From NCBI GenBank assembly GCA_964016885.1, contig OZ024742.1:80476001-80540000 (forward strand): DNA of 64,000 bases. The letters run 5' to 3'. Below, piece after piece: positions 4,119 through 60,589 of this stretch. Below the pieces are notes generated by a model. The model was not told the origin of the DNA. It saw only the letters and a list, made by a program, of their open reading frames with translations, and did no database searches. How positions within the stretch are numbered: position 1 is the first letter of the stretch; each line of letters starts with the position of its first letter. Source of the stretch: Eledone cirrhosa (Eukaryota). The position numbers and the translations under genes are program-made.

Positions 4119-4312
4119 GGGCGGTGGATTGGCAGAATCTGTAGAGAGTCGGACACCATGCTTCATAGCATGGAGTTGCGTCCCTTTACGGTCTGAGTTC
4201 AAATACCGCCGAGGTTAACTTTGCCTTTCATCCTCACGGGGTCGATAAAATGAAGTACCAGTAATGTACTGGGTAATTGCTGGCCTTGTGCCAAAAGTAG
4301 AAACAATTATTA
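4119..4312 (+). mobile_element. tRNA-derived SINE (full length)
   Basis: A-box-like TGGCAGAATC, B-box GTTCAAATAC, central CCTTTCATCC..GGGGTCGATAAA..AGTACCAG block, tail GGCCTTGTGCCAAAAGTAGAAACAATTATT. About 14 copies in the window. Confidence 0.9.
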
Positions 4313-4429
4313 GAAACATTGCTTCATTTTTACATATCTAAGCATCAGTAAAATAAGTAATAATTTCAAAAGTAATTTTTCAATTCCAATTGTTATGAAC
4401 AGCAAAACATTAATAATAATTTTGTTCTA

Positions 4430-4563
4430 AGAAATATATATACATTTCTGTGTGTGTAATATATATATATATACACTCAGAAATATATATACATTTCTGT
4501 GTGTGTAATATATATATATATATATATACACACACAGAAATATATATACATTTCCGTGTGTGT

Positions 4564-4633
<70 letters not shown>

Positions 4634-4659
4634 GAAATATATATAAATTTCTGTGTGTA

Positions 4660-4690
<31 letters not shown>

Positions 4691-4700
4691 GAAATATATG
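4430..4700. repeat. Palindromic minisatellite (CACACAGAAATATATATACATTTCTGTGTGTG separated by (TA)n), about 5 units
   Basis: Read directly; each unit is a hairpin. Confidence 0.85.
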
Positions 4701-5243
4701 GGCATTTCTCTGTTTGTCTGTCTGTCTGTCTGTCTGTCCTTCCCTAAAACTCAAATGTAGGTGCGACAGAAATATTACCTTCCCCTTCCTTTCTCCACTT
4801 TGGTACTACCAAGAGAAACGCTATCGCTATAGAAGCATTACCTTCCCCTCTCCACTGACTTTGGTCCCTGAGGCCAAGGGAATCACTGGTTGCTATAGAG
4901 ACACCTTGCACAAGCCAGAAGTAACCAGTTCGAGGCGGTTCTGACTTGTCCCCATGCCAAGGACCATTTGAAGATATATTTCCATCGTTATATCATAACG
5001 TTTATGTATCATAACGTTTATATTTCCGTCTCTAATCTCTTTTTCTTCTTTTTCCTTTTAACATATATTTATTTCAAAGATTTCACCGTATAGAAAACAT
5101 ATATATTTATACATGCATAAAAGACACACCGAGAGACGGTGAACATGTGGTGCAGAAAACATTTCTCATCCAAATATCAACAATATCAGTATATACACTA
5201 GATTTGCTAGCAGAAAACCGCCCACCGGGTGGTTTTCTGCTGG

Positions 5244-6148
5244 TCTATATATATAAACCTGAGGATGTCTGTCTGTGTGTGTGTGAGTTCGAATCCCTAA
5301 AACTCGAGAATCACCCAATCGACTGTTTTCAAACTTTACACATGTAATACTTATGTTTCAGGGAGTGTTCTGAGCAAAAACAATTTCAAATTTGCTATGC
5401 CCCAGGGACCACATTATGTGATTTAGCGATCTCGTTCTATAATTCTTAGTCTTCCTCTTTTTAGATAGATACATACTTATAACATCGCGCCCTTATACTA
5501 TCTATCTGTATGTCTGACTGTCTGAATAACGTCACTTCCTTGAGGATGTGTGTGTGTGTATGTGGATCCCTAAACTCGAGAAGTACCCAACCGATTTTTT
5601 TTCAAACTTTACATATGTATTACTAATGTTTCATGAAAAAATGCACATGAAAAAATTCAACTTTTTTTATCTCCTAAGACCCGCATTATCTCCTAAGACC
5701 TGCGTTGTTTAACATGTTTAGGTGTTTTTTGAGGCGTTACGTCAGACCGAGTTCCTTGAAATTGTAACTATGTATTAGTCAGTCTCTTCTTCATACCGTA
5801 AGCAAAGAGAATTCAACTTCCTTATGGCATAGGGCCCGCATTAAGTGAAAAACTTCATTTGTTCAGCTTCTTAGGGCTTTTTGGAGGCGTTACGTCTAGC
5901 GGATTTTCCTGAAATGTCAAGGCATGTTATGCACATAAAAAAAATTAATTTTCTTGATCCCCTAGGATAGGTGAAAACCTGCATTTTTCCTGCATCATCG
6001 AGGAAATTCTTAAAGATTATCCACCCTCAGAGTATTCGGTTTATTTTCTTTACATATTGTCCAGGCATGCAGTTTTCCATGATTAGGTCTGTTGGCGGCC
6101 CGCGTTCCAAAATACATTATCCCGTGCAACGCCGGGTACCACTGCTAG
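5244..6148 (+). mobile_element. Non-autonomous Helitron
   Basis: 5' TCTATATATATAAA followed by a GTCT/GT microsatellite. 3' hairpin CCCGTGCAACGCCGGG, then CTAG (6145-6148) and T. Internal duplication 5258-5360 / 5538-5635. Confidence 0.75.
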
Positions 6149-6219
6149 TATATAGTTATATACATATAGGAGTATATATAAATATATAAATATATACACA
6201 CCCCGCCACACACACATAT

Positions 6220-6267
<48 letters not shown>

Positions 6268-6299
6268 ATAAATATATATATATTTTATATATAGAGTTG

Positions 6300-6513
6300 T
6301 TAGCACAAATTCATTTGTTTATCCTCTAGGGCCCGCATTAGGTGAAAACCAGCATTTTCCCTGCTTCATCGAGGAAAATCGTAAAGATTATCCACCCATC
6401 AGAATATTCGGTTTATGTTCTTTACATATACTCCAGTCATGCAGTTTTTTTATCTATTGGCGGCCCGCGTTCCAAAATACATTAGCCCGTGCAAAGCCGG
6501 GTACCACTGCCAG
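6300..6513 (+). mobile_element. Second Helitron 3' end fragment
   Basis: Repeat of ~5950-6148 ending CCCGTGCAAAGCCGGGTACCACTGCCAG-T. Confidence 0.7.
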
Positions 6514-8300: not shown

Positions 8301-8448
8301 GAGAAGATTTGTTGTTTACCTGTCATTCAAAATCCAGCTGTTGAACTGATTAAGTTACCTTTCTTTTGCGGCACAGCAATATTGAGATTACAGCATTTTC
8401 CCTACACATTTCAATAACTCATCCATTACAAACGAATTGCATTATCTC

Positions 8449-8634
8449 CGTGGATTGGCAGTATCGGTAGAGGGTCGGACGCCATGCTTTCCAGCATCGT
8501 TACGTCCCTTTACGATCTGAGTTCAAATCCCGCCGAGGTTGACTTTGCCTTTCATCCTTACGGGGTCGATAAAATAAAGTACCAGTAATGCACTGGGTAA
8601 TTGCTGGCCTTGTGCCTAATGTAGAAACAATTAT
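8449..8634 (+). mobile_element. tRNA-derived SINE
   Basis: Same family as 4119-4312; flanked by ATTATCTCC (8441-8449 / 8630-8638). Confidence 0.9.
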
Positions 8635-8648: not shown

Positions 8649-8840
8649 GGGCGATGGACTGGCAGTACCGGTAGAGAGTCGGACCCCATGCTTTGACTCA
8701 TAGAGTTACGGCCCTTGCCATTCTGAGTTCAAATCCCGCCGAGGTTAACTTTGCTTTCATCCTTACGGGGTTGATAAAATAAAGTACCAGTAATGCACTG
8801 GGATGATTGCTGGCCTTGTGCCAAAAGTAGAAACAATTAT
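8649..8840 (+). mobile_element. tRNA-derived SINE (tandem with previous)
   Basis: Same family; 19-bp TSD ATTATCTCCTATA(C/A)ACCTT (8630-8648 / 8836-8854). Confidence 0.9.
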
Positions 8841-26693: not shown

Positions 26694-26860
26694 TAATTGT
26701 TTCTACTTTTGTCACAAGGCCATCAATTAACCCGGGGCATAACTGGCGCTTTATTCTATCGATCTCGTAAGTATGAAAGGCAAACTCTTTTGTAAAGGGT
26801 CGTAATTATATGCTGCAAATTATGGCGTCCGGCACTCTACCGATACTGCAATTCCGCTTC
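26694..26860 (-). mobile_element. Diverged SINE
   Basis: AATTGTTTCTACTTTTGTCACAAGGCC...CTCTACCGATACTGCAAT, with an internal deletion. Confidence 0.8.
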
Positions 26861-35313: not shown

Positions 35314-35315
<2 letters not shown>

Positions 35316-38500: not shown

Positions 38501-38995
38501 GAGGCTCTTGCAACCTCCTCCCCTATCCGCTAATCCCACACAGTCCCAGCGTGCATCTAAGATCCCGTTCCAGTCGCCCACTAACACTAAAGAGCGGGAC
38601 GTTCCAAGAAAGGTCTCCAGACGCCGGAAGAAATCAGGCCGCCCTGCTCCTGTCGGGGCATAGACGGCCACTAGCCTGAAAGCTTGCCCGTCTCCGCTGG
38701 TCACGTCCAGCACCACCAGCTTACCCTCTGGGTCCAGGAAGATGGCCCGTATGGCGAGATCCAAACCTCTCCGAAAAAGCACAGCAACTCCTCCACCCGA
38801 TCCAGGACGGCTGGGAGATGCGTACACATCGTAGCCGCCGAAGATCGGTGCGAAGGCCCGTGCTTCGGAGATTCTGGTCTCGCTGATGGCCACTACATCT
38901 ATGTTTAGTGACCTGAGGTCGTTGAGCAGGTGACCCTGCTTCCATGACGACCCCAAGCCACGCGCATTTATGCTGCCTATTCTGAGTGAGGTCAT
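35576..38995 (-). CDS. ORF2p: APE endonuclease + reverse transcriptase + C-terminal CCHC (1139 aa)
   Basis: SINARG, SETR, GDWN, SYLDR, TDH (APE). PGLDG, FRPITLLN, DQSKAFDRV, QGCPLS, YADD (RT). CPRC-x7-H-x4-C. Confidence 0.97.
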   Translation of the reverse strand: MTSLRIGSINARGLGSSWKQGHLLNDLRSLNIDVVAISETRISEARAFAPIFGGYDVYASPSRPGSGGGVAVLFRRGLDLAIRAIFLDPEGKLVVLDVTSGDGQAFRLVAVYAPTGAGRPDFFRRLETFLGTSRSLVLVGDWNGILDARWDCVGLADRGGGCKSLTNLLTRFELSDKYRLNFPNVPMWTWTNRIGSSRSYLDRVFCREIDRSSIGCPQFKIVSYTDHKFVTCVLDLDRLHRRGPGYWKLNASLPARKAYRDRISELVKRALTGAIVNNKWWFALKRAIRIESIRFSKALAIEKNRAEGELVRKLDEALSKGIATDVLAAKLALDQFFNAKHEGCVVRARVRALRHEGTKAVQWARGAEARRGNKATIRSLVDHDGRMLLDPGQMCEAFQRHFAQLFGGSGGPGRWMDFSVYLDGLPRLSATEAKCCEKPITAAEVREAMTGCTRGKSPGLDGLPYELYVQMPDLFGGLLADVYCNWQQNGRIPSSVSRGAVALLRKDPNKGDNIDNFRPITLLNTEFKILAKVLAKRLALVVGGLVGEAQTCAIPDRSIHDNLHLMRYIVERVAREPGTGGSLINLDQSKAFDRVDHRYLAAVLSAAGFGPVFRGWIAAMHSDICSVVRVNGHLSEPFNIMRSVRQGCPLSSLLYVLTLEPLLHKLETLRGVPRELGCGRSVSAYADDVTVVVSNAKHIEAIGTTLREYEAVTGAMINQEKSVGLQLGTWRGRSMPSNSVVGRWTDGPVKLLGVWFGPDLQTDKNWDEVTSRVASLTQKWAERKLSLKGRAEVANAYIASVICYRLTVVPCPKPRLTALERLLFRFLWKGRAPMVRRSICCQHPLRGGLGMPWLMMRRHALRLRHLHLFLDGDQVWSPFARRVFPQLVTLTELQSWVKRRPRGSAWRLECLQALTALDQSGNVIGGNSTSAFYRGLVEGKSDDVLGETLGVDENQLANLFGRTFGPGPMDNFQKSLAWQCYRGALPVRDKLYRHGGAVSRACPRCAQGDETVLHALVQCPKIADLWVYVEHLLSRLGRIQLSSESIVRIAPPSSFSREGQAVFICLVAMAKEIVWWTRLKGLKTSTYLFGDALIDFFKFHLKRKIRVEKEVLSSQHFVERWVREARMARVNGPTLSIYL

Positions 38996-39030
38996 GTTTA
39001 AAATAGAGTGGAAAAGATGGGAAAGACCAC

Positions 39031-41115
39031 TTACCGTACTTTTGGTAGAGGAGGGATGGTTTTTACATCCCTTTTCACTTGATCGTCTGGTGAAGGGACC
39101 GTTGAATCGTCCCTTCGGCTGGTCGTCGGCTCTTCTAAGAGAATGTCTGAATATACTCTTCGATTAGTGGTTCCTCCTAGGTCCCTGAAATCACCAACTG
39201 CGTTGGGGAATTTCGTTTTAATGTTTGTGTATTGTTTCTGTGCTATTTTTAGCAGTCTTATGTTAGTTGGCGTTTTGATTGGTGCTGGTATTATGTAGTC
39301 CTGTTGTGAAATGTCTGTGTGTTCAATTATGTAAGTCATTAGTTTCTTGTTGTGTGTGTTTATTGCCGTGCATTTGTTTTTCTGGGGGTGGGGTGTGGTT
39401 CTGCTATATTCTTGTCGTTGTTGCTGGGTGTGTGTGTTTTGTTGTTGTGTTTGCGATGTTGGTGCTTGTGGTGGTGGTGTTGAAGGTGTTGTTGGCGGTG
39501 GGGTTGTCGCCGGTGGTGATGGTGGTGCTGGTGTGGGTGGTGATGCTGTTGGTGGTGTTGCTGCTGTGGGTCTCTTTGCAGTAGACTTTACCCTTTTCTC
39601 ATTTCTTTCCTCCCTTTTCAAAGGCGACGATGCGCTGCTTCTGCGTTTGTGCCTTCTTGCGACCTTTTGCCATCCCTCTCCCACCTCACACTCCATGTCT
39701 GATTCTGTAAGGTCGGGGAGGGGTACCAGCTCCACTCTTTCACTTGTTGTTGTTGGTGATGTTTGCATTGGAGTCTCTGTTGCAGCTGCATTTGGTATTG
39801 CTGTTGTTGTTGTTAATATTTCCACTGCTGCTGCTGTCTTTGATTTCCGTGGAGTGGGTATGGGTGCCACGGACCTTTCGTTCCTGGTTGCCGCTTGTCC
39901 TGTTGCTGGTAGCCGTGGAGCCGGATTCGGAAGGAGGGGGGTTTTCTCCTTTCTCAGGGTCTTCTCGTTGCAGAAGGCCCTGAGGTGAGTCTTCGATCCA
40001 CAGCGAAAGCATTTCGGGCGTTTGCCCTCAACACTTATGGGCAGTTGAGTGCCGTTATCGAAGTCTATCACATCCGGGATAGCTTCGATGCACTCCTGGT
40101 TGGTTTGGATTAGCATCTCAATGGAGGAGCCGACCCAATCTTCTCTTACTTTTTTCTGTACTTGCAGTACAGTTGTTTTGTCCTCGATTCCGACGAGGAC
40201 AGACGCGGCCAGCCAAGAAGGGGTCATTCCGGGGGGGACGTGGGTTAGTTTGACCCTCACAATTTTTTGCCCACAGTAGGAGGGCACCAACACCATTTCC
40301 TCGCTCCTTAGGGTCACTACTGATTGGGCCTTTGCCTCCTGGGGTGTGGCAAAAAGTACGTCTACGGTGGCATATTTTTTGCCTCGGGTGATGTGCGTTT
40401 TCCGCTGCCACACAGACCCCAAGGCTTTTTGTATTTGGGCCTCTGTGGCTCTTTCCACCCTACGGGATTTTGTACTTACTGTACGGTACGTGACCGTACA
40501 GTGCTCTTGGGTTTCGAAAAATTTTCCCGCTGCCTTGCAGATTGCTCGGTGTCCGTTCTTTGTAACCATCTTCTTCGCTTCCTCTAATTCCTCATTTGTT
40601 ATGAGGATTGTTTCCAAGTTTTTCGCAATACCTGCAAATGAGATTGGTTTTTCTCTGCTGTTGTTGTTGTCGTCAGAGCTGCTGGTACTTTTGTTGTTGC
40701 TGCAGGTACTACGACTACTGCCTCCGCCGCTGTTGCTGTGGTTGTTGTTGGTGTTGCTGCTGCTAATGCTGTTGTTGTTTATGCTGCTGCGGCTGCTACT
40801 GTTGTTTTCATTGTCACTGTTGCTGTTGTTATTACGGCTGCTACTGCTATTATTCCTGACGTCAGACGAATGAACTGGGTTTTCGTATTTCCCGCACACC
40901 TGTTTCGTCGCTGTCGTCGTCGTCGTGGAGAAACTTTGCACGCTTTGCACGAGACTTTTCTTTTCTTTCGTCACTTGCGAAAGAGAAGGGAGGGAGAGAG
41001 ACACATTTAAAGAAGGGAGGGGGAGAGACAATCTTCTCTCTGCTGTAGTGATGATTGAGGAAGAAGAAGACGGAATGAGTGGGAGTGACGTATGAAATTT
41101 CTTTTTCGTAGCCAT
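39031..41115 (-). CDS. ORF1p: gag-like nucleic-acid-binding protein (694 aa)
   Basis: CX2CX4HX4C knuckle (CFRCGSKTHLRAFC), N/S-rich and P/T-rich low-complexity regions, basic patch; lies upstream of ORF2. Confidence 0.9.
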   Translation of the reverse strand: MATKKKFHTSLPLIPSSSSSIITTAERRLSLPLPSLNVSLSLPSLSQVTKEKKSLVQSVQSFSTTTTTATKQVCGKYENPVHSSDVRNNSSSSRNNNSNSDNENNSSSRSSINNNSISSSNTNNNHSNSGGGSSRSTCSNNKSTSSSDDNNNSREKPISFAGIAKNLETILITNEELEEAKKMVTKNGHRAICKAAGKFFETQEHCTVTYRTVSTKSRRVERATEAQIQKALGSVWQRKTHITRGKKYATVDVLFATPQEAKAQSVVTLRSEEMVLVPSYCGQKIVRVKLTHVPPGMTPSWLAASVLVGIEDKTTVLQVQKKVREDWVGSSIEMLIQTNQECIEAIPDVIDFDNGTQLPISVEGKRPKCFRCGSKTHLRAFCNEKTLRKEKTPLLPNPAPRLPATGQAATRNERSVAPIPTPRKSKTAAAVEILTTTTAIPNAAATETPMQTSPTTTSERVELVPLPDLTESDMECEVGEGWQKVARRHKRRSSASSPLKREERNEKRVKSTAKRPTAATPPTASPPTPAPPSPPATTPPPTTPSTPPPQAPTSQTQQQNTHTQQQRQEYSRTTPHPQKNKCTAINTHNKKLMTYIIEHTDISQQDYIIPAPIKTPTNIRLLKIAQKQYTNIKTKFPNAVGDFRDLGGTTNRRVYSDILLEEPTTSRRDDSTVPSPDDQVKRDVKTIPPLPKVR

Positions 41116-41342
41116 GTTGTTTTTTGTTTAAAATGAATATTGGGTACAAAACCCCAATAACTGGTTATTTAGCCCCGAAGGGCCAAATAACGGACAGAAA
41201 GACCCCTCTCACGAGGAGGAGGGTATCTTTATCAACAATTTGGTTCAAGTTTTAAACAATTTACAATTGTTTTAACGGTTAAAAATTACTATACCTTACA
41301 GAGCCGAGCCTCCGTCAACCATGGCATTCAATAATAATAATA

Positions 41343-43253
41343 ATGATACTGGAAGATTGTCATAATAGACACAAAAATCTATCGATTGCTTGGATAGATT
41401 ATAAAAAAGCATTTGATAGTTTGCCACACAGTTGGATTGAAAAATATTTAGAGATTTTCAAAACATCCCCCGTTGTCAGGAGGCTTTTGTCATTCAGTAT
41501 GAGGACATGGAGAACGACACTCCTTTTGAATAGTGAAACAAAATCACTGGATGCTGGAGAAGTTAACATTAATTGTGGAATTTTTCAGGGTGACTCTTTA
41601 TCACCGCTTTTATTCTGCATCGCACTTATACCATTAAGTAAAATGCTCTATGAAACAAAATATGGATATAGAGTCTATGACAAAACCATTAATCACCTGT
41701 TCTACATGGATGACCTGAAACTATTTGCAAAATATGATGAACAATTGCAAGGGCTATTATCCACTGTGAAGCAGTTCAGTGATGACATTAAAATGGAGTT
41801 TGGATTGGATAAATGCGCCAAAGCAACGTTCACCAGAGGAAAGCTGCTGAAGAGTTCAGACATTAATCTTGATCGGGGGAACGTGATAAGAGAGCTTGAT
41901 CAAGAACAAACTTACAAATATCTAGGTGTTTGTGAAGGAGACGGAATCAAGCACTCGACAATGAGGGAAAGGATAAGGAAGGAATGTTACCGCAGAGTCA
42001 GAGCAATCTTAAGAACGGAATTGAATGCAAGGAATAGGATCGATGCCATAAACACGCTTGCCATACCAGTAGTAACCTACAGTTACAATGTCATCAACTG
42101 GTCAAGCACAGAGATCCGTAGGCTCGATACAAAAATCCGAAAATACTTAACCATGCACAGAATGCATCACCCTAAGGCAGACATAGATAGAATATATCTC
42201 CCTAGGAAAGAAGGAGGACGTGGGTTAATCCAGTTAGTCATTGCGTTGAAAACTGCAACAATTGGATTATCCACATATCTAAGGGAATCACATGATTGGA
42301 TGATCAAACTCGTTTTGAAACACGAAAGCACCAACAGATCATATTCCATTACAAAAGATGCACAAAGATACAGTAATGGACTACACATTTCAGAAGTCCC
42401 ATTTACTGCTGAAATAGAAAACACAGAAAAAGCAAAGCAGGTAAAAGTAACTGCAAAGAAAGAACTGCTACAGAAACTGGCTAAGAAATGGCAAGAAAAG
42501 CCTCTGTATGGAAAATACCCAGAGCGAGCTAACAATCCTGATGTTGACAAAACTTTAACCCATCAGTGGTTGGCATCCTCTGGACTGAAATCGGAGACTG
42601 AAGGACTGATTATATCCGCACAAGATCAGTGTCTGCCAACAAAAAATTACCAAGCCAACATAATAAAAAATGGGTGCAGCCCATTATGCCGTGTATGCAA
42701 AAAACAACCAGAGACCATTGACCATATAATTTCAATGTGCAGTCCTATAGCTCCAACCGAATACCTAAACAGGCATGACAGAGCTGCACAATACATACAT
42801 TGGATAATGTGTAAGCCTTTTGACCTGCCCCATCAAAAGAATTGGTGGGAGCATCAACCACCTCCCATACTTGAAAAAGATCACATCTCAATTTTGTGGA
42901 ACTTTAGCATCCAAACAGACCGAAAAATAGATGCAAATAGACCTGATATAATATTGAAGGACTTTCAAAGGAGGGTATGCCTGCTAATTGATATGTCTGT
43001 TCCAATAGACAAGAATGTATCTATAAAAACATTTGAAAAATTGAGCAAGTATAAGGACCTGGAGATAGAAATTGGAAAAATGTGGAAATTGAGAACTAAA
43101 ACAATACCAGTGGTTGTAGGCGCTCTGGGAATGATACCTAAGGGGTCTAACGACTACTTATCGCAAGTCCCAGGAAACCCGCGTATACGAGAAATACAAA
43201 AGATAGTACTAATGGGAACTGCCCATATACTAAGGAAGATCCTGTCAATATAA
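41343..43253 (+). CDS. Open but 5'-truncated RT + CCHC + restriction-like endonuclease ORF (636 aa)
   Basis: WIDYKKAFDS, GIFQGDSLSP, YMDD, CRVC..ETIDHIISMC, RHD, NRPDII..IDMSVP..EKLSKY. The ATG is created at the microsatellite junction. Confidence 0.9.
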   Translation: MILEDCHNRHKNLSIAWIDYKKAFDSLPHSWIEKYLEIFKTSPVVRRLLSFSMRTWRTTLLLNSETKSLDAGEVNINCGIFQGDSLSPLLFCIALIPLSKMLYETKYGYRVYDKTINHLFYMDDLKLFAKYDEQLQGLLSTVKQFSDDIKMEFGLDKCAKATFTRGKLLKSSDINLDRGNVIRELDQEQTYKYLGVCEGDGIKHSTMRERIRKECYRRVRAILRTELNARNRIDAINTLAIPVVTYSYNVINWSSTEIRRLDTKIRKYLTMHRMHHPKADIDRIYLPRKEGGRGLIQLVIALKTATIGLSTYLRESHDWMIKLVLKHESTNRSYSITKDAQRYSNGLHISEVPFTAEIENTEKAKQVKVTAKKELLQKLAKKWQEKPLYGKYPERANNPDVDKTLTHQWLASSGLKSETEGLIISAQDQCLPTKNYQANIIKNGCSPLCRVCKKQPETIDHIISMCSPIAPTEYLNRHDRAAQYIHWIMCKPFDLPHQKNWWEHQPPPILEKDHISILWNFSIQTDRKIDANRPDIILKDFQRRVCLLIDMSVPIDKNVSIKTFEKLSKYKDLEIEIGKMWKLRTKTIPVVVGALGMIPKGSNDYLSQVPGNPRIREIQKIVLMGTAHILRKILSI

Positions 43254-43394
43254 GTACATCACAAGTCTAAACACTAAGGATGCATGTGTGAATATGTATG
43301 TTCTTTCTTGAACATGGCGGACCTTGTTGTCTCTTGAGGTCACTGGTTGTGACTTGGTGATAACTAGTATAAACATAAAGCAAGATAAATGCAA
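41343..43394 (+). mobile_element. 5'-truncated R4/Dong-like retrotransposon (family 1)
   Basis: Starts right after (AAT)5 and ends in (AAT)6; ~140-nt 3' UTR. Confidence 0.92.
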
Positions 43395-43411: not shown

Positions 43412-46400
43412 GCTTTCTTTATTAACCACAAGGGTTTACATAAAGTAGACATTAAGGACAGTACAGTACAATACAAGACAGTACAAATGGGCATTTCTGC
43501 GTGTAAAAAAAAAACAGTGGATGTAATAAAAAAATAACAATGAAAAATTTCGCAAAAGGGGGGAGATTTCCGAAGGACATTTGTGGAGAAAACCCATTAA
43601 AAGGCCACAGTGATCCTGACCACCAGGGCAAGTGCCCTCTCACAGTTTTCCACCTTTAATTTACAGACACATACTCAGAGTAGGCCCATTCACTCGGGCC
43701 ATTCTTGCCTCTCTCACCCATCTTTCAACGAAATGCTGGAAATAGAGCACTTCCCTCTCTACCCTGATTTTCCTCTTCAAATGAAATTTGAAAAAGTTAA
43801 TCAGGGCATCACCGAAGAGGTAAGAGCTCGTCTTCAGCCCTTTCAAACCATACTATCTCTTTCGCCATGGCCACCAGACAGATAAAAACTGCCTGCCGTT
43901 CCCGGCTAAAGGAAGAGGGCGGGGCAACACTTACGATGGACTCAGCTATTAGCTGGATCCATCCTACACGTGACAACAGGTGTTTAACATAAACCCACAA
44001 GTCCGCAATGCTCGGACACTGGACGAGTGCGTGCAGGACGGTTTCGTAGCCCTGCGCGCATCTAGGACTTGCCCGGCTGACGGTACCTTCACGCCTGTAG
44101 AGTTTATCCCGATCTGGCAAAGATCCTCGGTAGCACAGCCAGGCCAGGGATTCTGGAAGTTGTCCATAGGCCCCGGGTCGAAAGTCCTTCCGAAGAGATT
44201 GGCTAGTTGATTTTCGTCGACGCCTAGTGTTTCTCCAGGTACGTCGTCGCTCATCCCCTCCACTAATCCTCTATAGAACGCCAAGGTGGAGTTTCCACCG
44301 ATCACATTGCCCGATTGGTCGAGGGCTGTATGCGCCTGAAGACATTCCAGTCTCCAAGCGCTCCCACTCGGTCTACGCTTGACCCAGCACTGCAGCTCCG
44401 TCAAGTAGACGAGCTGGGGAAAGACGTGTCTAGCAAACGGCGACCACACCTGATCCACGTCGAGGAAGAAGTGGAGATGTCGTAGCCTGAGCGCGTGTCT
44501 GCGCATCATCAGCCACGGCATGCCCAGCCCTCCACGTAGCCGGTGTTGACAGCAGATGGACCGCCTGACCATCGGAGCGCGTCCCTTCACAAAAAGCGAA
44601 AGAGCAAACGGTCCAGCGCGGTCAGGCGGGGCATAGGACAAGGTACGACGGTCAGGCGGTAGTAGATGACGGACGCGATGTAAGCGTTAGCCACCTCCGC
44701 TCGACCTTTTAGGGATAGCTTCCTCTCCGTACATTTCTGGGTGAGACTATCCACTCTGCTCGTCACCTCGTCCCAGTTTTTGTCCATCTGGAGGTCCGCA
44801 CCGAACCAGACCCCTAGCAATTTACCCGGGCCGTCCGTCCAGCGACCGACGACGCTGTTGAACGGCATGGTCCTGCCTCTCCAGGTGCCGAGCTGCAGGC
44901 CCACTTACTTTTCCTGGTTGATCATTGCTCCTGTCACCGCTTCGTATTCTCTTAGTGTAGTGCCGATCGCCTCGATGTGTTTGGTGTTCGACACCACTAC
45001 GGTGATATCGTCCGCATATGCTGACACGGATCTTCCGCATCCTCGTTCACGTGGGACCCCCCTCAACGTCTCCAGTTTGTGCAGTAATGTCTCGAGAGTC
45101 AATATGTACAAGAGGGACGAGAGGGGACATCCTTGGCGGACCGAGCGCATGAAGTTGAACGGTTCCGAAAGGTGACCGTTCACTCTCACCACAGAGCAGA
45201 TGTCGCTGTGCATGGCATCGATCCAGCCTCTGAAGACGGGCCCAAAGCCAGCACCCCTATCGAAAGCTTTTGACTGATCTAAATTGATCATGGACCCACC
45301 CGTGCCAGGTTCCCTAGCTACCCTCTCTACCATGTATCGCATGAGGTGGAGGTTGTCGCTGATGGATCTGTCGGGAATGGCGCGTCTCTGCGCCTCTCCC
45401 ACCAAACCACCAACGACAAGCGCCCACCCCTTTGCTAGCACCTTGGCCAAAATCTTGAACTCTGTGTTTAGCAGAGTTATGGGCCTGAAATTCTCTATGT
45501 TATCCCCCTTGTTCGGATCCTTTCTCAGCAGCGCCACAGCCCCTCGGCTCTCAGAACTGGGAATTCTCCCGTTCTGTTGCCAGTTGGAGTAGACGTCTGC
45601 CAATAGGCCTCCGAACAAGTCTGGCATCTGTACGTAAAGTTCATAGGGCAGACCATCCAAACCAGGCGATTTACCCCTTGTGCAGCCAATCATTGCCTCC
45701 CGTACTTCAGCTGGTGTTATCGGCTTTTCGCAACACTTCGCCTCAGTGGCCGAGAGCCGCGGCAGTCCGTCGAGGTAGACACTAAATTCATTCCTCGATC
45801 CGGCCCGTCGCTGCCCCCGAACAGCTGTGGGAAGTATCGCTGAAAAGCTTCACACATTTTCCTGGCATCGAGTAGCATGCGCCCGTCGTGGTCTACCAAA
45901 GACCGTATCGTGGCTTTGTTGCCACGACGCGCCTCCGTCACTCGGGCCCATTGAACGGCTTTCGTCCCCTCGTGTCTGAGAGCACGCACCCTAGCTCTGA
46001 CAACGCAGCCTTCATGCTTTTCATTGAAGAATTGGTCAAGGGCCAATTTCGCCGCAATTACGTAGGTCGCGATGCCTTTGCTAAGCGCCTCGTCTAATTT
46101 TCTAACTAATTCTCCCTCTGCTCTATATTTCTCTATTGCTAAAGCCTTACTAAACCTAATGGACTCTATTCTAATTGCTCTTTTCAGAGCAAACCACCAC
46201 TTGTTGTTGACGATGGCCCCCGTCAACGCCCGCTTAACTAGTTCGCTAATCCGGTCTCTGTAGGCCTTGCGCGCTGGTAAGGACGCGTTTAGCTTCCAGT
46301 AGCATGGTCCTCGTCTATGAAGCCTATCTAAGTCAAGCACACAGATCACAAATTTGTGGTCCGTGTAGCTGACTCTCTTGAATTGTGGACAGCCTATGCT

Positions 46401-49223
46401 ATACCTATCTATTTCCCTACAAAATACTCTATCTAGATATGATCTGGATGAACCTATGCGATTTGACCAAGTCCACATTGGCACATTCGGGAAATCCAAT
46501 CGGTACCTGTCAGACAGTTAAAAACTCCTGAGCAGGTTGGTGAGGCTCTTGCACCTTCCTCCCCTATCCGCTGATCCCACACAGTCCCATCGTGCATCTA
46601 AGATCCCGTTCCAGTCGCCACTAACACCAAAGAGCGGGACGTTCCAAGAAGGTCTCCAGACGCCGGAAGAAATCAGGCCGCCCTGCTCCTGTCGGGGCAT
46701 AGACGGCCACTAGACTCAAAGCTTGCCCGTCTCCGCTGGTCACGTCTAGCACCACCACTTACCTTCTGGGGCCAGGAAGATGGCCCGTATGGCGAGATCC
46801 AATCCTCTCCGAAAAAGCACAGCAACTCCTCCCCATCGATCCAGGACCACTGGGAGATGCGTACAAATTGTAGCCGCCGAAGATCGGTGCGAAGGCCCGT
46901 GCTTCGGAGATTCTGGTCTCGCTGATGGCCACTACATCTATGTTTAGTGACCTGAGGTCGTTGAGCAGGTTGCCCTGCTTCCATGACGACCCCAAGCCAC
47001 GCGCATTTATGCTGCCTATTCTGAGTGAAGTCATGTTGAAATGGAGTGGGAAAGATGGGAAAGACCTCTTACCTTACTTCTCGTAGAGGAAGGCTGGTTT
47101 GTCCATCCTTTTCACTGCTTGTGGCCTCCTCCGAAAGGATATCCTTATACATCCTCCTGGAGAGTGTTTGTCGGAAGTCTCCGATGTCTTTGGGGAATTT
47201 TTGTTTTAGTGTCGTGTACGTTTTCTGTGTGATGCGAGTGATTTGTATGTGTGGAGGTGGTTTGAACTTTTGGATTGTTGTATCATCTTTTTCTGTGATG
47301 CTGGTGTTGTGTTGGATGTAGTGTAATAATTGGTTGTTGTTCAAATTTAATGCTGTGTAGTGTGTATCGTTTTGGTTGTTTTGTTTTGTTTGCGTTTGTT
47401 GTGGGTTTGTTTCTGTTTCGCTTTTTGGTGACTTTTGTGGTGTTGGTGATGGTGGTGATGGGGTTAATGATGGTGATGGTGTTGGTGTTTGTGGTGATGG
47501 GGTTGGTGATGCTGGTGTGGATGGTGGCATATCTGTCCTAACTTTTTTGTTTGTTAATTTATTTGTTTCCCTCTGTATTTTGTTTTTTGAGGGGGAGGGA
47601 AGAGAATTTTTTCTTTTTTGGTTTCTTTTTTTCTTTTTTCCTGATACCGTTTCCCACTCCTCGCCGTCACAATCTGTCTCCAGTTGTGATAGGCCGGGGA
47701 GTGGAAAATCCTCCACAGGCGTTGGTTTCGATTGTGGCGTGGTGGATGATGTAGGCGCTGGTGCTAGTTCTGGCGCGTTGGGTGGTGGTGGTGTTGGTTT
47801 TGCTACTGTTGCTGGGGTTGTTGCTGTTACAGTTGCTTCTGTTGTTGCTGCTACAATTGTTGCTGCCATCTCTGCTGCTGGTGGTGTTGATGGTTGAAGC
47901 ACTGAGGTGGGTAGGAGAGGTGGCCTCAACCTTTTATCCTGAGGGCAGAAAGCCCTTAGCTGGGTTCCTTCACCACAAACGACACACCTAGGCCTTCTGC
48001 CCTCGACAATTACGGTGAGGTGGCTGCCGTCAGTGAGGTATATTACCTCTTGGATCTCCTCAATGCTTTTTTGATCCGCTTGGATCAGGAGCACCATCCC
48101 ATATCCGGACCAGTTCTCCTGCCTTTCTTTCGCTATTTCGATTATCTTGGTGTTGGCTTCGATGCCGGCGAGAACGGCAGCTATTAGCCAGGGAATTTCG
48201 GTGGCCGGGAAAAGTGGGTGACCCTGATCTTAGGAGTCTCTGGCCACAATAGCTTGGGACGAGTGTGATGTCGTCACTTCTTAATGGGGCCCTGGGGTGT
48301 TCTTTAGCCTCCTGTGGTGTTTAAAAGAACACGTCCACGGTTCCATATTTCTGCCCACGTCTGATGTGGGTTTTTTTTGCCCACATATGTCCCAAAGCTT
48401 TTTAGATTTGGGACTCGGATGCCCGTTCCACTCGGCGTGATTTTATATTAATCGTTCTATAAGACACGGTGCATAGGCGCCGACGCTCCATTTTTTTGGG
48501 GGGGAGGGGGGGGGGGTGACCCTGTCCCATCTTTCTTTACCATTTTTTTGGCTTCTTCTAATTCCTCCTGAGTTACCTGAAATGCTTCGCATTCTTTTGC
48601 TACTCTGGCAAAACTCAGGGTGGTTGTCTTAATGTAATTGTTGTTGTTGTTGTGATCGTTATTTTTGTTATAATTAATTTTAGTTTCAGTTGTGGTGGTG
48701 GTGGCGTCAATGGTGGTCGGTGTGGAAGAGTTCATTTTGGTTGAATTCATTTCTATATCACGAGTTAACTTATTTTTTTACTTTTGTTTCAGTTGTCGCG
48801 GTGGTGGTGAGGGTGGTGGTTGTCGTGGTGGTGGTGGCTTTAACACCTGCAGTCATTGATAATGGCGGGAAATGAATGTCTGCCTGAGACAAATTTAAAA
48901 TATTGCTATTGCTTATATTTTTAGTGTTTGCAAACGTAGTAATATTTACAATGTTGGTGTCGGTGTGAGGTGTTAGTTTGTGAGAAAGGAGTGATTCTGA
49001 GTCAGCCATCATTTTTCAAAGAAACATTTTTGTTTGATAATTATAAAAGTTTAAATTTTGGGCTCAAGGCCCCAATCTTTTTGGGTGTCCTTTTCAGATA
49101 ACAATGTATGTGCACGTATATACAGTTAACAATAAAAATTTTCCATGAATGGCAATTTTAAACAACTGAAAATAACAAAACTTTGCGGAGCTCACGAAGA
49201 AACGATTTACTACGTAGGTCGCC
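43412..49223 (-). mobile_element. Full-length but frameshifted Tx1-clade LINE
   Basis: ORF2 fragments 43640-47034 are nearly identical to 35576-38995. ORF1 fragments at 47069-49012 are divergent. Flanked by (AAT)n and (ACT)n(AAT)n. Confidence 0.93.
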
Positions 49224-49278: not shown

Positions 49279-49300
49279 ATAATAATAATAATAATAATTA
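49224..49300. repeat. (ACT)n/(AAT)n microsatellite
   Basis: Read directly. Confidence 0.95.
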
Positions 49301-49301
49301 T

Positions 49302-49656
49302 GCTTTCTTTATTAACCCCAAGGGTTTACATAAAGTAGACATTAAGGACAGTACAGGACAATACAGGGCGGTACAAACAAAAGATGTAATAAAAAATAAC
49401 AATAAAAAATTCCCCAATAGGGGGGAGACTTCGGAGGGACATTTGTGGAGAAAGCCCATTAAAAGGCCACAGTGACCCCTGACCACCAGGGCAAGTGCCC
49501 TCTCCCAGTTTTCCACCTTTAATTTACAGACACATACTCAGAGTAGGCCCATTCACTCGGGCCATTGTTGCTTCTCTCACCCATCTTTCAACAAAATGCT
49601 GGTAAGAGAGCACTTCTCTCTCTACCATGATTTTTATTTTCAAATGAAATTTGAAA
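49302..49656 (-). mobile_element. Severely 5'-truncated Tx1 copy (3' end only)
   Basis: Matches 35314-35707. Confidence 0.92.
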
Positions 49657-50669: not shown

Positions 50670-50675
50670 AATAAT

Positions 50676-52349
50676 GCTTTCTTTATTAGCCACATGGCTT
50701 TACACAAAGTAAGACATTAAGGAGAGTACATGACAATACAGGAGAATACATGACGGTACAAGTGGGCATTTCTGCGTGTAAAAAAAAAACAAAAAAAAAA
50801 ACAGAGGACGTAATAAAAAAGGAACAATGAAATATTTCCCAATAAGGGAAGACTTCCGAGGCCCATAGTGGAGAAAACCCATTAAAAAATCCACGGCAAG
50901 TGCACTCTAACAGTTTTCCACCTTCAATTTACAGGCACATACTCAGAATAGGCCTATTCACGCGGGCCATTCTTGCTTCTCTCACCCATCCTTCAACACA
51001 ATGCTGGGAGGAGAGCACTTTCCTCTCTACCCTGATTTTCTTATTCAAATAAAATTTGAAAAAGTTAATCAGGACCGAAGAGGTAAGTGCTCGTCTTCAG
51101 ACATTTCAGACGCGTCCACAATTCTATCTCTTTCGCCATGGCCACCAGACAGATAAACACTGCCTGCCCTTCCCGGCTAAAGGAAGAGGGCGGGGAAATC
51201 CTCATGATGGACTCAGCTGATAGCCAGAAATAAACCCACAGGCCACGCTCGGACTCTGGACGAGTGCTTGCAGAACGGTTTCGTCGCTATGCGCTCATCT
51301 CGGGAAGGTCCGTCTGACAGCACTTCCATGCCTGTAGAGTATATCCCGAACTAGCAAAGATCCACGGTAGCATGCCAGGCCAGGGATTTCTGGAAATTGT
51401 CCATAGGCCCCGGCCCGAAAGTTCTTCCGAAGAGATTGGCTAGTTGATTTTCGTCGACGCCTAGAGTTTCCCCAAGTACGTCGTCGTTCTTCCCCTCCAC
51501 TAATGCTCTATATAACGCCAAGGTGGAATTTCCACCGATCACATTGCCCGACTGGTCGAGGGCTGTGAGCGCCTGAAGATATTCCAGTCTCCAAGCGCTC
51601 CCTCTCGGTCTTCGCTTGACCCAAGACTGCAGCCGCGACAAGGAACGAGCTGGGGAAAGACGCGTCTAGCAAACGGCGACCACACCTTATCACCATCGAG
51701 GAAGAGGTGTAGATATCTGCGAATCAACAGCTACGGCATTCCCAGCCCTCCACGTAGCGAGTGTTGACAGCAGATGGACCGCCTGACCATCGAATCACGT
51801 CCTTTCCACAAAGAGCGAAAGTGCAAACACTCCAGCGCAGTCAGGCGAGGCTTAGGACAAGTCACGACCGTCAGGCGGTAGTAGATAACGGACGCGATGT
51901 ACGCATTTGCCACCACCGCTCTACCTTTCAGGGATAGCTTCCTCTCTGCCCATTTCTGCGTGAGAGAAGCCACCCTGCTCGTCACCTCGTTCCAGTTTTT
52001 GTCCGTCTGGAAATCCGGACCGAACCAGACCCCTAACAATTTAACCGTTCCGTCCGTCCAGCGCCCGACAAGGTTGTTGGACGGCATGGACCAGCCTCTC
52101 CCGAATGCGGAGCTGCAGGTCCACTGACTTTTCCTGGTTGATCATTGCTCCTGTCACCGCTTCGTATTCTCTTAGTGTATTGCTGATCGCCTCGATGTAT
52201 TTGTCGTTCGACACCACTACGGTGATATCATCCGCATATGCTGACACGGATCTTCCGCATCCTAGTTCGCGCGGCACACCGCTCAATGTCTCCAGTTTGT
52301 GCAGTAATGGCTCGAGTGTCAATACGTACAAGTGGGACGAGAGGGGACA
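50676..52349 (-). mobile_element. 5'-truncated decayed Tx1 copy
   Basis: Homologous to 35314-37056 (YADD region to 3' end); the 5' junction is in a SINE tail. Confidence 0.92.
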
Positions 52350-52350
52350 T

Positions 52351-52730
52351 AATTGTTTTTACTTTTGGCACAAGGCCAGCAATTACCCAGTTCATTAGTG
52401 GTACTTTATTTTATCGACCCCGTAAGGATGAAAGACAAAGTTAACTTCGGCGGGATTTGACGTCAGAATGGCAAGGGCCGTAATTATCTGCGTCAATGCA
52501 TGGTGTCCGACCCTCCACCAATACTGCCAATCAACCGCCATTACTAAACAGTAATAATTATTGTTTTTACCTTTTGCACCAGGCCACAGTACATTACTGG
52601 TACTTTATTTTATCGACCCCGTAAGGATAAAAGGCAAAGTTAACCTCGGTGGGATTTGAAATCAATAAAGGGATATAATTCTATGCTGGAAAGCATGGTG
52701 TCCGAGTCTCCACCGATTCTGACAATCCAC
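52351..52730 (-). mobile_element. Two tandem tRNA-derived SINEs (52351-52540, 52557-52730)
   Basis: Same family as 4119-4312. Confidence 0.88.
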
Positions 52731-53313
52731 ATAATGACAACTATAATGTCGGCAATAATAAAAAAGGGAAACAAAACGAATGCCAGTTGGCTTTGTTAGC
52801 CTTTAATCTGAGACGCCCAGTTCAAATATTCATCGTATACATATATATCTTAAATATTTCACTATGAATGTAACACGTTTAAAAGAAAAAAAAATGTTAC
52901 AATGTTATATATATATATATAAATTAATAAAGTAATGAATAAACAAAGAAACAGTTCCTTATATTAAAAAAAATTCATCATTTTATGATCGTTTCTAGGA
53001 TATATATGTGTTAGTGTTGGTATGCATATTCTATAGATCTATGTAAAATATTTATACAAACTATCAGAGGGAATATACATACCTACACATATATATGCTG
53101 TCTTCAAAAATAATGATATTTGTTTATTGAAAAAAACAACAAAGATTTAATACAATAGGTCTGTTTGGGAACAGGTTTTGAATTGACCAATAGAAAGATA
53201 GTGAAGGTCAAGATAGTAATATAGTAGTAAAAGAACCTTAATTTATGGGTAGAGGAAGGTAGATTTTAGTTTTGGATGGAAAAGAATATTATGAATGAAA
53301 GATTATTTTAGGG

Positions 53314-54021: not shown

Positions 54022-54168
54022 TATACATTTTAGAAATTAATATATAAACTGTTTTTAATTTAGTTAACCTATAATTAATATTCTACTACTGATGAACTAC
54101 ATAATTTTACTTTCCTTCTTACAACTATCATTTCCTAAAACTGATACCATTAAGTAAACATATATAAT

Positions 54169-54226
54169 TGTTTCTACTTTAGGCACAAGGCCAGCAATTA
54201 CCCAGTGCATTACTGGTACTTTATTT
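54169..54226 (-). mobile_element. 58-bp 5'-truncated SINE with TSD
   Basis: TSD TAAACATATATAAT at 54155-54168 / 54227-54240. Confidence 0.85.
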
Positions 54227-54374
54227 TAAACATATATAATGCTTTAATTTCAGGTTTTGACTCTATGTTCCTTGAAATCTCTATATATTTATTATTTCTC
54301 ACTAATAAATTTACCTTCCCCCTCCCCCAATAATTATCTGTATGTGTATGTATTTGTGTATATATATATGTATA

Positions 54375-57723: not shown

Positions 57724-57760
<37 letters not shown>

Positions 57761-57767
57761 TATATGT

Positions 57768-57828
<61 letters not shown>

Positions 57829-59093
57829 TCTATGTCTATATATACAGATTCTCTTTTAAAACAGAAACATTTGATTTCTAACTGATAAGCATTGTCCTTT
57901 AACACAACTATATGTTTTATCAATCGTCCCCAATTTTGCCATTTCGCTACCTTAACATCATGGGTACATATTGACAAATGATCAAATAGCTAGTCAATGT
58001 TTGCTTGCTGAAATGGAAGAAGGAAAAGAAAAGAGAAAATTATGAGAAATGTGAAAGCGTGTTCTCTTTATCTCCCCACACCTATTTATTTATTTATTTA
58101 TTTATATATTTATTCAACAACAAAAAAGCTTTGAATGGTTATAGATTGATCAGCAATGATTATTAACGAAATGCAAGAAGAGCCATAATATATAGCTAAA
58201 TCAATAAAATGATATCAAAGAAGGGCGTGAACCATGTATAATTCATAAGAATAATCGAACTGTAATATTTGTTATAATTTGGGGATGAAATTGTATCAGA
58301 ATTAATTGTTCAGTTTCACAGAAGCATACGTGTGAAGTAATGGGTAAACATTACAAAGTCAAAACGAACAGGCTTTGAAGTTAACTAGCGTTATTTAGAC
58401 CAATAGAGTCGAATAGTTGAAATTTTATATGATTATTTATATTTTTATTTCAATTTTTTTTTTGCCTTTTTTAAAAATAATTTTGTACAAGACAAGGAAA
58501 ATTAATAATGCGACTGTTGATCGATTATTGATTTTCTCTTGAGAAAGTGAAGTAAAAAAACTATTCACACGAGTTTGCGTTCACACACTTGAATACGTAT
58601 ATATATAGAGAGAGAGATAGGGGGGGGGAGAATGTGTGTGAAATAGGGAGGAGCTGAGACATAAGCAAAGAGGAGTGTTGCTACATTGGATGAGTGTCTT
58701 TCGTGTTAGAGATAGAAACTGCGTCAAATTTGATCAAGTGATAACTACAAAAGGTTAATTGTGACCCACATCGCGTTGGTAATGATGATGATGTTTCATA
58801 CTGCTGATGATGGTGATATTGTTGTTGATTATTATGATAATGATTAAACTTACACAAGCATGCAATTCGACATTTAAACTGAGAGAAAGAAACTTCGGCT
58901 GTTAATTATCAATTTATTCAATAATACGCTACTGATGACTGTCTCACATGTTGTATCTTCAACACATCCACCTCTATAGCGCATATAAGCTCCCTGTAGT
59001 TTCAACTTAGTAGGCCACAACCTGGCAAACCATATATTGCTTGTTATCCTTATCGAGCCCTCTTTGGATTTTAGTCTTCAAATTTATTATTTT

Positions 59094-59140
<47 letters not shown>

Positions 59141-59146
<6 letters not shown>

Positions 59147-59444
59147 AATAACAGGAGGATGGATTGGTGTAAATCCTTGACAGGTTTATTATACTATGAT
59201 CATTTCAATGACCGGATTCAAGTATTCAAAATATAACAAAGGAATATAACAGATAAAATCCATGGGGTTGAAAATCAGAGACAAGAGGACGACCGACTAT
59301 CTGCAGCTTCTACCTCAGTCGGCTGCCCTCGAGCTACACAAACGAAGACGGGCGAGTTGCATTACGTTGACTGCTCTCCATAATATTACATCGAAATTGA
59401 CCATACAGTATGACCAGTTCTATCCAGTGGTGAACCAACGAACC

Positions 59445-59447
<3 letters not shown>
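59141..59447. mobile_element. Short rearranged PLE terminus (same family as 27200-28410)
   Basis: 59141-59330 matches 27381-27597 with a deletion; 59334-59445 is the reverse complement of 27241-27353; between (TA)n tracts. Confidence 0.75.
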
Positions 59448-59524
<77 letters not shown>

Positions 59525-60372
59525 TGTGTGTGTGTGTGGCCGGGGGTGGGGGTGTACGTGTGTGTGCCTGTGCATGTGTGTATGTGTGTATGTGTGTATG
59601 TGAATGTAATGTTTCAAGGCCACAACAATGCAAAATGGATGAACAAGTAAGTAAGATGAAATAAGATGTTATGTGTTACCTTATTTATCTGTTCTGATAT
59701 TTCGACATAAATCTTTTTCCCCAGATGTCTATAACAAGGAACAGGTCTGGAATCCGTAAAGATTCTAAATCACACAGCTGGAAGCATTTCAGAATGCCAG
59801 AAACCCGCCACACTACGCTAGAAATATATAAAGAGCAAAGGATCACGAAAAAAAAAGAAAGAAAGAAATGTGAATAAAAAAAAGTAATGATTTTCTTTAA
59901 AAGTCAAACAAAGTAATGCTTTTCTTACCCGGAATATCTCAAAATAACATTTCAAGGGTGTAAATCCCTTTTCAAATACGCAATCGAGATAATTGTAACA
60001 TTCATTGAAGAAAATATATTTCGTTTTCTTTTGCACCCTTCTTTGTTGTTGTTGTTGCTGTTTTGCTTTTGAAAAGAGGGAGTTAAACCTCAAATATTAT
60101 GTTGAAATATACTGGGTAAGAAGAATGTTAATTCGATTTGGTTAATTTGTCATACTTTGTCCTTTAAATATGAACAGCGCAGTGTACTGGCCTTTTGAAA
60201 TACATCGCAATCATTGTTCAGGGGCGCTGCAATATATATATATATACATATACACATACATATTTATATATATATGTATATATAACCAAGAATGACGATG
60301 TTGTTCTACTCCAAAGGCTAAGGCAGTTGTTTGCATGATTGCAAACGAATTGAATTGTATCATTAATATAAT

Positions 60373-60547
60373 TATTTTTACTTTTGGCACAAAGCCAGCA
60401 ATTATTCCAGTGCATTACTGGTACTTTATTTTATCGACTCCGTAAGGATGAAAGGCAAAGTTAACCTCGGCGGGATTTGAACTCAGACTGAAAAGGGACT
60501 GTAAAGCAGGGCATCCGACTCTCTACCGATACTGCCAATCCACCGTC
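60373..60547 (-). mobile_element. tRNA-derived SINE with 19-bp TSD
   Basis: TSD ATTGTATCAT(T/A)AATATAAT at 60354-60372 / 60548-60566. Confidence 0.9.
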
Positions 60548-60589
60548 ATTGTATCATAAATATAATGGCTGTGGATTGCAACAAAGAAA

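Follow-up and report, generated by a model that had tools for sequence, protein, structure and literature searches.

The stretch of Eledone cirrhosa DNA examined here, hereafter the window (64,000 nt; contig OZ024742.1, positions 80,476,001 to 80,540,000 of the forward strand), contains 14 BLAST hits to a non-coding short interspersed element (SINE) of about 190 nt as well as full-length, broken and truncated copies of Tx1-like long interspersed elements (LINEs), and a preliminary description drawn from the letters of the window had proposed that the SINE is the non-autonomous partner of one of these LINEs. Comparison of both kinds of element within the window and across the genome makes it probable that the SINE is copied in trans by the protein of the second open reading frame (ORF2p) of ATT-type Tx1-like LINEs, by way of a predicted 3' hairpin common to both. 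The reference full-length copy of the SINE (8448..8634, forward strand) consists of a tRNA-like head with a B-box-like motif at 8521, a central body, which we take to resemble a Deu domain, and a tail ending in ATTAT; it has no internal run of four or more T. The strict A-box pattern is unmatched in this copy, and ARAGORN finds no tRNA gene in the head, for which Rfam returns chance matches only. The terminal motif of this copy (8605..8629, forward strand) is predicted to fold into a hairpin (8605-8617; stem TGGC/GCCW, loop CTTGT), which is followed by AGAAA. An 11-letter word of the SINE body, searched in the full-text literature, led to unrelated papers only, among the matches listed.

On the reverse strand, at 35314..41329, lies a full-length Tx1-like LINE of about 6.0 kb, designated family A (Tx1-A), bordered by (ATT)21 on the 3' side and by (ATT)5 on the 5' side. 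Its intact ORF2 (35576..38995, reverse strand; 1139 aa) encodes an APE endonuclease, a reverse transcriptase and a zf-RVT motif (Pfam matches Exo_endo_phos, RVT_1 and zf-RVT), and its best PDB match is LINE-1 ORF2p (E=4.6e-52, compared with E=1.8e-21 for R2). ORF1 (39031..41115, reverse strand; about 690 aa) has no Pfam match at 1e-3; one CX2CX4HX4C knuckle can be read in its translation, a CCHC zinc knuckle in ORF1 presumably being a feature of the Tx1 clade. With two open reading frames and an ORF2 whose endonuclease, reverse transcriptase and zinc motif are closest to L1 ORF2p, the element belongs to the L1 group, in agreement with the preliminary description. The LINEs that carry the shared tail likely belong to the Tx1 group within it. 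Target-sequence preference, a feature of the Tx1 clade, is present in Tx1-A, and in a tree that included no named Tx1 reference the Tx1-like families of this genome fall into one cluster, along with two unnamed homologues; apart from "L1 group", the clade labels used here for the repeats are putative ones assigned from sequence motifs. The terminal motif of the intact copy (35314..35338, reverse strand) comprises a predicted hairpin (35326-35338; stem AACC/GGTT, loop CTTGT), then AATAAAGAAA and the ATT tail; the AGAAA following the SINE hairpin stands in the same register as in Tx1-A.

The five target-site duplications (TSDs) that had been cited as beginning with ATTA on the SINE sense strand are all present. 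The reference copy is flanked by one of 9 nt (8441/8630), and the copy in tandem with it (8650..8840, forward strand) by one of about 21 nt with one mismatch, starting ATTAT (8630/8836). Two tandem copies at 33976..34362 (reverse strand) have a TSD starting ATT (33967/34169 region), a 5'-truncated copy of 65 nt (54164..54228, reverse strand) has one of 14 nt starting ATTAT (54155/54227 region), and a full-length copy (60368..60547, reverse strand) one of 19 nt with one mismatch, also starting ATTAT (60354/60548 region). The TSDs of the copy at 4119..4310 (forward strand) and of the 5'-truncated copy at 62849..62925 (reverse strand) are weak by eye. No TSD is readable for a diverged copy (26693..26856, reverse strand), for a 5'-truncated copy located after a Tx1-B-like 3' end that breaks off at its hairpin loop (29596..29704, reverse strand) or, by eye, for the SINE-like matches at 60590 and 21140. 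Two further tandem copies occupy 52349..52732 (reverse strand), and a 5'-truncated Tx1 starts in the tail of the downstream one. Elsewhere in the genome (loci L068, L076, L090 and L097) an older form of the SINE is longer by about 30 nt, which lie ahead of the hairpin; the dominant short form seems to have arisen from it by internal deletion.

The remaining Tx1-like copies of the window, all on the reverse strand, are a second, broken copy of Tx1-A type (43412..49210), a Tx1-A 3' fragment with an ATT/AGT tail (49290..49656), a 5'-truncated older Tx1-A copy with the hairpin variant AGCC-ATGT-GGCT (50670..52345) and a copy of Tx1-B type, about 75% identical to family A (29705..31900). The ORF2 region of the second copy is 92% identical to that of the first; its ORF1 and 5' end differ, and the same combination of a common ORF2 with a different ORF1 and 5' end recurs at loci L165 and L299, which suggests swapping of 5' modules. 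Three of the Tx1-like copies end in sense (ATT)n (35251-35313, 43394-43411 and about 49250-49290), as had been stated of the Tx1 copies in general, but the copy at 50670 ends in ATTATTGTT only.

It is this older copy that had been aligned without gaps to the SINE (about 50698 against about 8607). The 20 identities in 26 positions are confirmed, whereas the intact copy at 35314 reaches 14-17 of 24. We compared the last 24 nt of 20 LINE tails, one 3' end per family or variant (8 Tx1-like, 4 CR1-type, 4 RTE-type, 2 R4-like and 2 I-group), using three SINE variants as query and allowing shifts of up to 2 nt; tails of L2, Hero, CRE, RTE-X, Proto2 and Ingi lie outside this comparison. All eight Tx1-like tails score 14-19, 14-17 and 13-18 of 24 against the three variants, the first range being that for the young SINE, while all 12 other tails score 7-12, 7-14 and 7-12. 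Among 4,991 genomic windows preceding ATTAT, taken as a null, the scores peak at 8 and reach 16 or more in 0.5%, these high-scoring windows probably being diverged SINEs. Thus, no RTE, R4, CR1 or I-group tail in the samples beats the Tx1-like tails; for RTE- and R4-type LINEs homology to the SINE tail is at background, except for one RTE score of 14. Since families D, E, F, G and A2 match the SINE tail as well as or better than family A, the driver is assigned to the Tx1-like group, and the particular ORF2 at 35576-38995, which had been singled out for the purpose, is not provably the partner.

The best argument for this assignment, absent from the preliminary description, is the predicted hairpin, in which the loop is conserved and the stem shows compensatory changes. 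In most rows of the alignment the shared block forms a stem of 3-4 bp with a loop of 5 nt, and a predicted hairpin with a CUUGU-type loop is common to seven Tx1-like families and the SINE. The stems differ (AACC/GGTT in family A, GGCC/GGCY in B, TGCC/GGCA in C and TGGC/GCCW in the SINE), the loops being nearly all CWWGT or CCTGT; the CUUGU loop and the ATT ending occur together in families A, B and E. In 12 aligned tails, 85% of the stem cells pair and three of the four pairs change on both sides; the seven compensatory cells were reached by none of 500 shuffles, a control that ignores relatedness, and slid pairings give 17-58%. In the SINE stem a C-G pair is flipped to G-C with the loop kept. 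Within the seven Tx1-like families the hairpin block is identical at 16-22 of 24 positions, compared with 7-13 of 24 for the 24 nt directly upstream, and the ORF2 C-termini are 60-77% identical to that of family A. The intact form TGGC-CTTGT-GCCW is found in 71 of 108 sampled SINE tails, and older long variants keep the hairpin too. As far as sequence goes, a 3' tail shared in register and a conserved stem-loop with compensatory changes would mark a LINE/SINE pair of the stringent type. Stringent recognition by Tx1-like ORF2p is likely, judging from this conservation. Other Tx1-like families (L069, L217, L033 and L173) keep the hairpin and end in AT or ATCT/TCTA repeats, some with variants of the loop, and target repeat and loop may have shifted together.

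The exact 27-nt pattern of the SINE tail occurs 134,138 times in the genome of 3.0 Gb. The genome was read in 99 stretches of 10 kb at even spacing (990 kb in all, or 0.03% of its length) and at targeted loci. The 99 stretches contain 208 SINE-like matches; 118 have a usable 3' end, with ATTAT directly after the tail in 97, and removal of two near stretch edges left 116. A duplication of 9-22 nt beginning at the SINE tail is found in 59 of these 116 copies, compared with a mean of 11.5 and a maximum of 20 for permuted flanks. The SINE itself ends in ATTAT, and a non-circular test of the target was therefore needed. The 8 nt beyond ATTAT were sought upstream of each copy, 31 low-complexity cases being excluded, and were found in 26 of the 85 testable copies (permuted mean 0.57). 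In 20 of these 26, ATTAT precedes the upstream 8-mer and in four more it is one mismatch off, against a background of 0.26% per position; the target thus carried ATTAT prior to insertion of the SINE. The base before the target ATTAT is C in 14 of 26, compared with 17% in the background (p = 2e-5). The enrichment of ATT at SINE insertion sites, whose absence would have counted against the original proposal, is therefore strong in the samples. The passenger is sequence-specific with regard to ATTAT and not with regard to (ATT)n arrays: in 99 of 116 copies no more than two ATT units follow the tail, and the SINE is a user of loose ATTAT sites rather than an array specialist.

Tails of families A and B occur 7,591 and 2,628 times in the genome. 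The 141 Tx1-A ORF2 ends scored are near-identical, and many of them belong to intact frames and to tandem arrays, in which nearly identical units of 6 kb, with ORF2 intact, follow one another head to tail; such arrays suggest that the family was active very recently. The Tx1-A 5' end is preceded by at least five ATT units in 30 of 30 cases read, ATT arrays of at least five units flank both sides in all 19 full-length copies recognised among 20, and only 9 Tx1-A 5' ends genome-wide follow a base other than T. Two truncated Tx1-like copies (L136 and, by eye, L177) have non-repeat TSDs starting ATTAT, which indicates that Tx1-like machinery can use non-repeat ATTAT sites. The preliminary description further held that the ATT tails of the SINE seed new Tx1 targets. 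Indeed, 115 full-length Tx1-A 5' ends genome-wide lie within 30 nt of a SINE tail; the effect is minor, R4-like and Tx1 tails being commoner neighbours, and two figures, 2 of 30 ends read and 1,303 candidates in all, suggest that SINE-tail sites account for under a tenth of Tx1-A 5' ends. Of 30 Tx1-A 3' flanks, counted by eye, 10 consist of an R4-like tail in antisense, 8 of a further Tx1-A in tandem, 4 of a SINE oriented like the LINE and 8 of other sequence. A SINE follows the 3' end of family B in 8 of 40 cases by a strict pattern and in 11-12 by eye. As SINEs also follow CR1-type ATT tails (3 of 30), such co-location reflects the shared ATTAT and not, by itself, a partnership.

Copying in trans through the hairpin might proceed as follows. 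RNA polymerase III, acting from the tRNA-like head, would transcribe the SINE to the end of its tail and on into the flank, and ORF2p would bind the loop and stem of this transcript, by analogy with the zebrafish L2 elements in the passages covered of PMC4176376. The APE endonuclease would then nick the bottom strand 3' of ATAAT, mostly before G (on the top strand, C precedes 14 of the 26 target ATTATs). The AUUAU of the RNA would pair with the freed end and prime synthesis, and a cut of the top strand 9-22 nt away would give rise to the TSD. The looser sites of the SINE may be due to its short RNA tail, to selection against 6-kb insertions in unique DNA or to an older helper family. A more far-reaching version of this scheme, which we put forward tentatively and would not yet favour outright, is that the Tx1-clade LINEs of this lineage are of the stringent type and read the 13-nt hairpin by its CUUGU loop, and that the SINE captured this signal with a flipped stem. 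It might then outnumber its helpers more than tenfold and broaden their specificity from (ATT)n to single ATTAT sites, since the choice of site would depend on pairing between RNA and target.

Several observations weigh against mobilisation through the hairpin. The match between SINE and Tx1-like tails is short (about 24 nt) and imperfect; the top raw score, 19 of 24, is that of family D, whose terminal repeat is ATCT/AT and not ATT, and one RTE tail scores 14 of 24 with the GCCA-type SINE, equal to the weakest Tx1-like scores. No LINE carrying the exact tail of the SINE was found in two genome-wide pattern searches (127 and 13 hits). The stem has only 3-4 bp, the shuffle control takes no account of relatedness, the flip in the SINE is a single event, and a GCCT-type SINE copy has a different minimum-energy fold. 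As regards targets, 57 of 116 sampled SINE copies are without a TSD, and the SINE sits mostly at lone ATTAT sites, with at most two ATT units after the tail in 99 of 116, whereas Tx1-A has (ATT)n arrays on both sides. Truncated Tx1-A copies show TSDs in 4 of 10 cases, no better than permutation (3.9) and uninformative because the insertion sites are themselves repetitive; in truncated Tx1-B copies a TSD is mostly absent. Median divergence from the own majority is 2.0, 4.3 and 6.5% in the SINE groups, some copies being near 1%, and 4.3% in both Tx1-A and Tx1-B, so that their ages overlap; a CR1-type family ending in (ATT)n is also young, and age therefore neither discriminates between these partners nor excludes that family.

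That CR1-type family, with an ORF of 957 aa, is the most serious rival and was absent from the preliminary description. Its terminal repeat agrees with that of the SINE in sequence and sense, many of its ORFs are intact and its copies are young; nevertheless, we regard it as a very improbable helper of the SINE, in view of a tail that matches at 7-9 of 24 positions, of TSDs at the tail boundary in none of 34 truncated copies as compared with 59 of 116 SINEs (Fisher p = 2.5e-9) and of an upstream ATTAT in 1 of 34 as compared with 60 of 116. A looser TSD search on it gave 5 matches; each of them lies in a simple or local tandem repeat, and ATTA is the start of none. CR1-type partners in general, whose four tails score 7-11 of 24, were rejected on these grounds. 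Partners of RTE and R4-like type were rejected as well: RTE-a is found mostly within (AT)n, and the repeat around R4-a is (AAT)n in the sense of that LINE, on the strand opposite to the SINE; duplications starting ATTA were found in 0 of 13 RTE-a and 0 of 9 R4-a copies. The true partner could instead be an unsampled or extinct LINE outside the Tx1 group (L2, Nimb, Hero, Ingi or similar), the likeness to Tx1 then reflecting shared tail ancestry or convergence. The small part of the genome sampled and the 12 non-Tx1 tails compared leave room for such a LINE, and the passages covered of PMC11481361 give CR1, CR1-Zenon, L2 and Nimb partners for bivalve SINEs. On the other hand, the partner of a SINE with copies about 1% divergent should be young and visible, the non-Tx1 families sampled all fail on tail or target, and the search that gave 127 hits, for a Tx1-type upstream word joined to the SINE tail, returned 100 listed matches that, judged by eye, resemble variant or truncated SINEs, with one joined to a Tx1-A 3' end; we therefore consider this explanation improbable.

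A less remote alternative, though still an unlikely one, keeps the Tx1-like ORF2p and drops the reading of the hairpin, which would be a relic or serve 3' end formation near AATAAA, while targets would be set by AUUAU pairing only. The far looser sites of the SINE as compared with those of Tx1-A fit such an arrangement. So does AATAAA, which the SINE lacks and Tx1-like tails keep; the SINE stem joined to AATAAA has only 13 matches genome-wide, in which no family was seen, the loci not being inspected one by one. SINEU, moreover, has been proposed to be mobilised by Tx1 elements, no shared tail being reported in the passages covered of PMC4494074. Against it stand the loop and the re-paired stem, which are kept across SINE subfamilies (intact in 71 of 108, and in older long variants too), and the compensatory flip, which has no reason in a relic. 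Whether the hairpin is read or recognition is loose, the two taken jointly make the Tx1-like group very probably the helper of the SINE.

The other repeats of the window include LINEs that we take to be R4/Dong-like. A 5'-truncated one (41349..43393, forward strand) ends in (AAT)n, with the second Tx1 copy antisense in its tail, and the (AAT)n tail of a 3' part (34382..35250, forward strand; related copy at 49778-50668) hosts the intact Tx1-A. In the genome, (AAT)n is found on both sides in 7 of 9 truncated copies. These LINEs use the same microsatellite as the Tx1-like elements on the opposite strand (window 34382-35313, 41330-43411 and 49778-50680; L085, L135 and L197), and Tx1-like elements nested antisense in their tails build long alternating arrays. 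ORF fragments at 12310-13097, 53299-54150, 56724-57400 and 60666-61115, presumably Penelope-like, have no Pfam match, and the SINE at 54164 stands directly after one of them. Fragments at 7402-8322 and 15157-16450 seem to us to resemble the reverse transcriptase/RNase H of long terminal repeat elements and a hAT-like transposase, with no Pfam match for the two frames scanned. Outside the window, the young CR1-type family with its 957-aa ORF ends in (ATT)n without TSDs (L173, L263-L292, L301-L312), and in several of its intact copies about 130 nt of the 3' end are duplicated. An abundant RTE-type family ends in (ATG)n and lies mostly in (AT)n repeats (L063, L064, L081, L162, L172, L198). A LINE ending in (AAC)n (L293, L294) is assigned to the I group on what we take to be an RNase H-like domain.

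This repeat cast (Tx1-like, R4/Dong-like, RTE, CR1, Penelope-like and a very abundant SINE) resembles the one published for octopus, where tRNA-Deu SINEs are the main SINEs and L1-Tx1, Dong-R4, RTE and CR1 LINEs occur, and in the parts covered of these studies no partner LINE, tail structure or target motif is assigned (PMC13282606, PMC8967140). The SINE is probably already catalogued. No report of a tail shared between Tx1 and a SINE, or of the partner of this SINE, was found in the literature searched, which did not extend to Repbase, Dfam, subscription papers, figures and supplements. The term "Tx1" is absent by look-up from PMC5786205, PMC7245038, PMC3531059 and PMC11481361, as far as their accessible text goes, and in a review of 58 SINE/LINE pairs it occurs five times, the passages shown all lying outside the pair table. 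Precedents exist separately for SINEs mobilised by Tx1 and for stringent tails in the L1 clade; for an animal Tx1/SINE pair with a shared tail none was found in that literature. If the more far-reaching version of the scheme is correct, Eledone would provide the first animal L1-group LINE with a recognition tail shared by a SINE. The assignment to the Tx1-like group also gives a likely engine for the kind of SINE that dominates octopus genomes.

The closest parallel among Tx1 elements is SINEU/Tx1-Mar of crocodilians (PMC4494074, passages covered), in which a SINE is likewise thought to be mobilised in trans by a target-preferring Tx1 group, on the basis of shared targets and overlapping ages, with tandem SINE insertions around a TSD. 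SINEU has snRNA heads, a poly(A) tail and a Mariner target, and no LINE similar to the 3' half of SINEU-1 is reported there, whereas the Eledone SINE combines a tRNA-like head with an ATT ending, and its terminal hairpin is shared. Kibi, in (TC)n, and Koshi, in (TTC)n, are Tx1-clade LINEs that also insert specifically into short repeats, but their target is not (ATT)n and the same passages mention no SINE passenger. With regard to tails, the preliminary description had opposed stringent L2, CR1 and RTE to a mammalian L1 that recognises only poly(A); stringent L1-clade elements have already been described in maize (LINE1-1_ZM with ZmSINE2/3) and Chlamydomonas (L1-1_CR with SINEX-3_CR), where a conserved L1-clade 3' end is shared with the SINE and, in maize, forms a hairpin with a conserved loop and a variable, compensated stem (PMC3747384, PMC3472496). 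Unlike the Eledone pair, these belong to plants and algae and to the L1 rather than the Tx1 clade and share tails of 45-80 nt, and no microsatellite targeting is noted in the passages covered. The mechanism has been tested for zebrafish ZfL2-1 and ZfL2-2, whose ORF2 reads a 3' stem-loop, the loop giving specificity and the stems being swappable (PMC4176376, passages covered); those elements are of the L2 clade, have a longer stem and were studied by experiment, the Eledone case being one of sequence evidence. Work on plants and mammals has left open, in the passages covered, whether the L1-group ancestor recognised one particular RNA tail or simply poly(A) (PMC3472496, PMC3747384). A Tx1-like element of an animal that conserves a very small hairpin, exists in thousands of near-identical copies and has a passenger in nature would make this question directly testable, and the pairing of an array-bound LINE with a loosely targeted SINE would offer a clean test of endonuclease preference versus RNA-DNA pairing in the choice of site.

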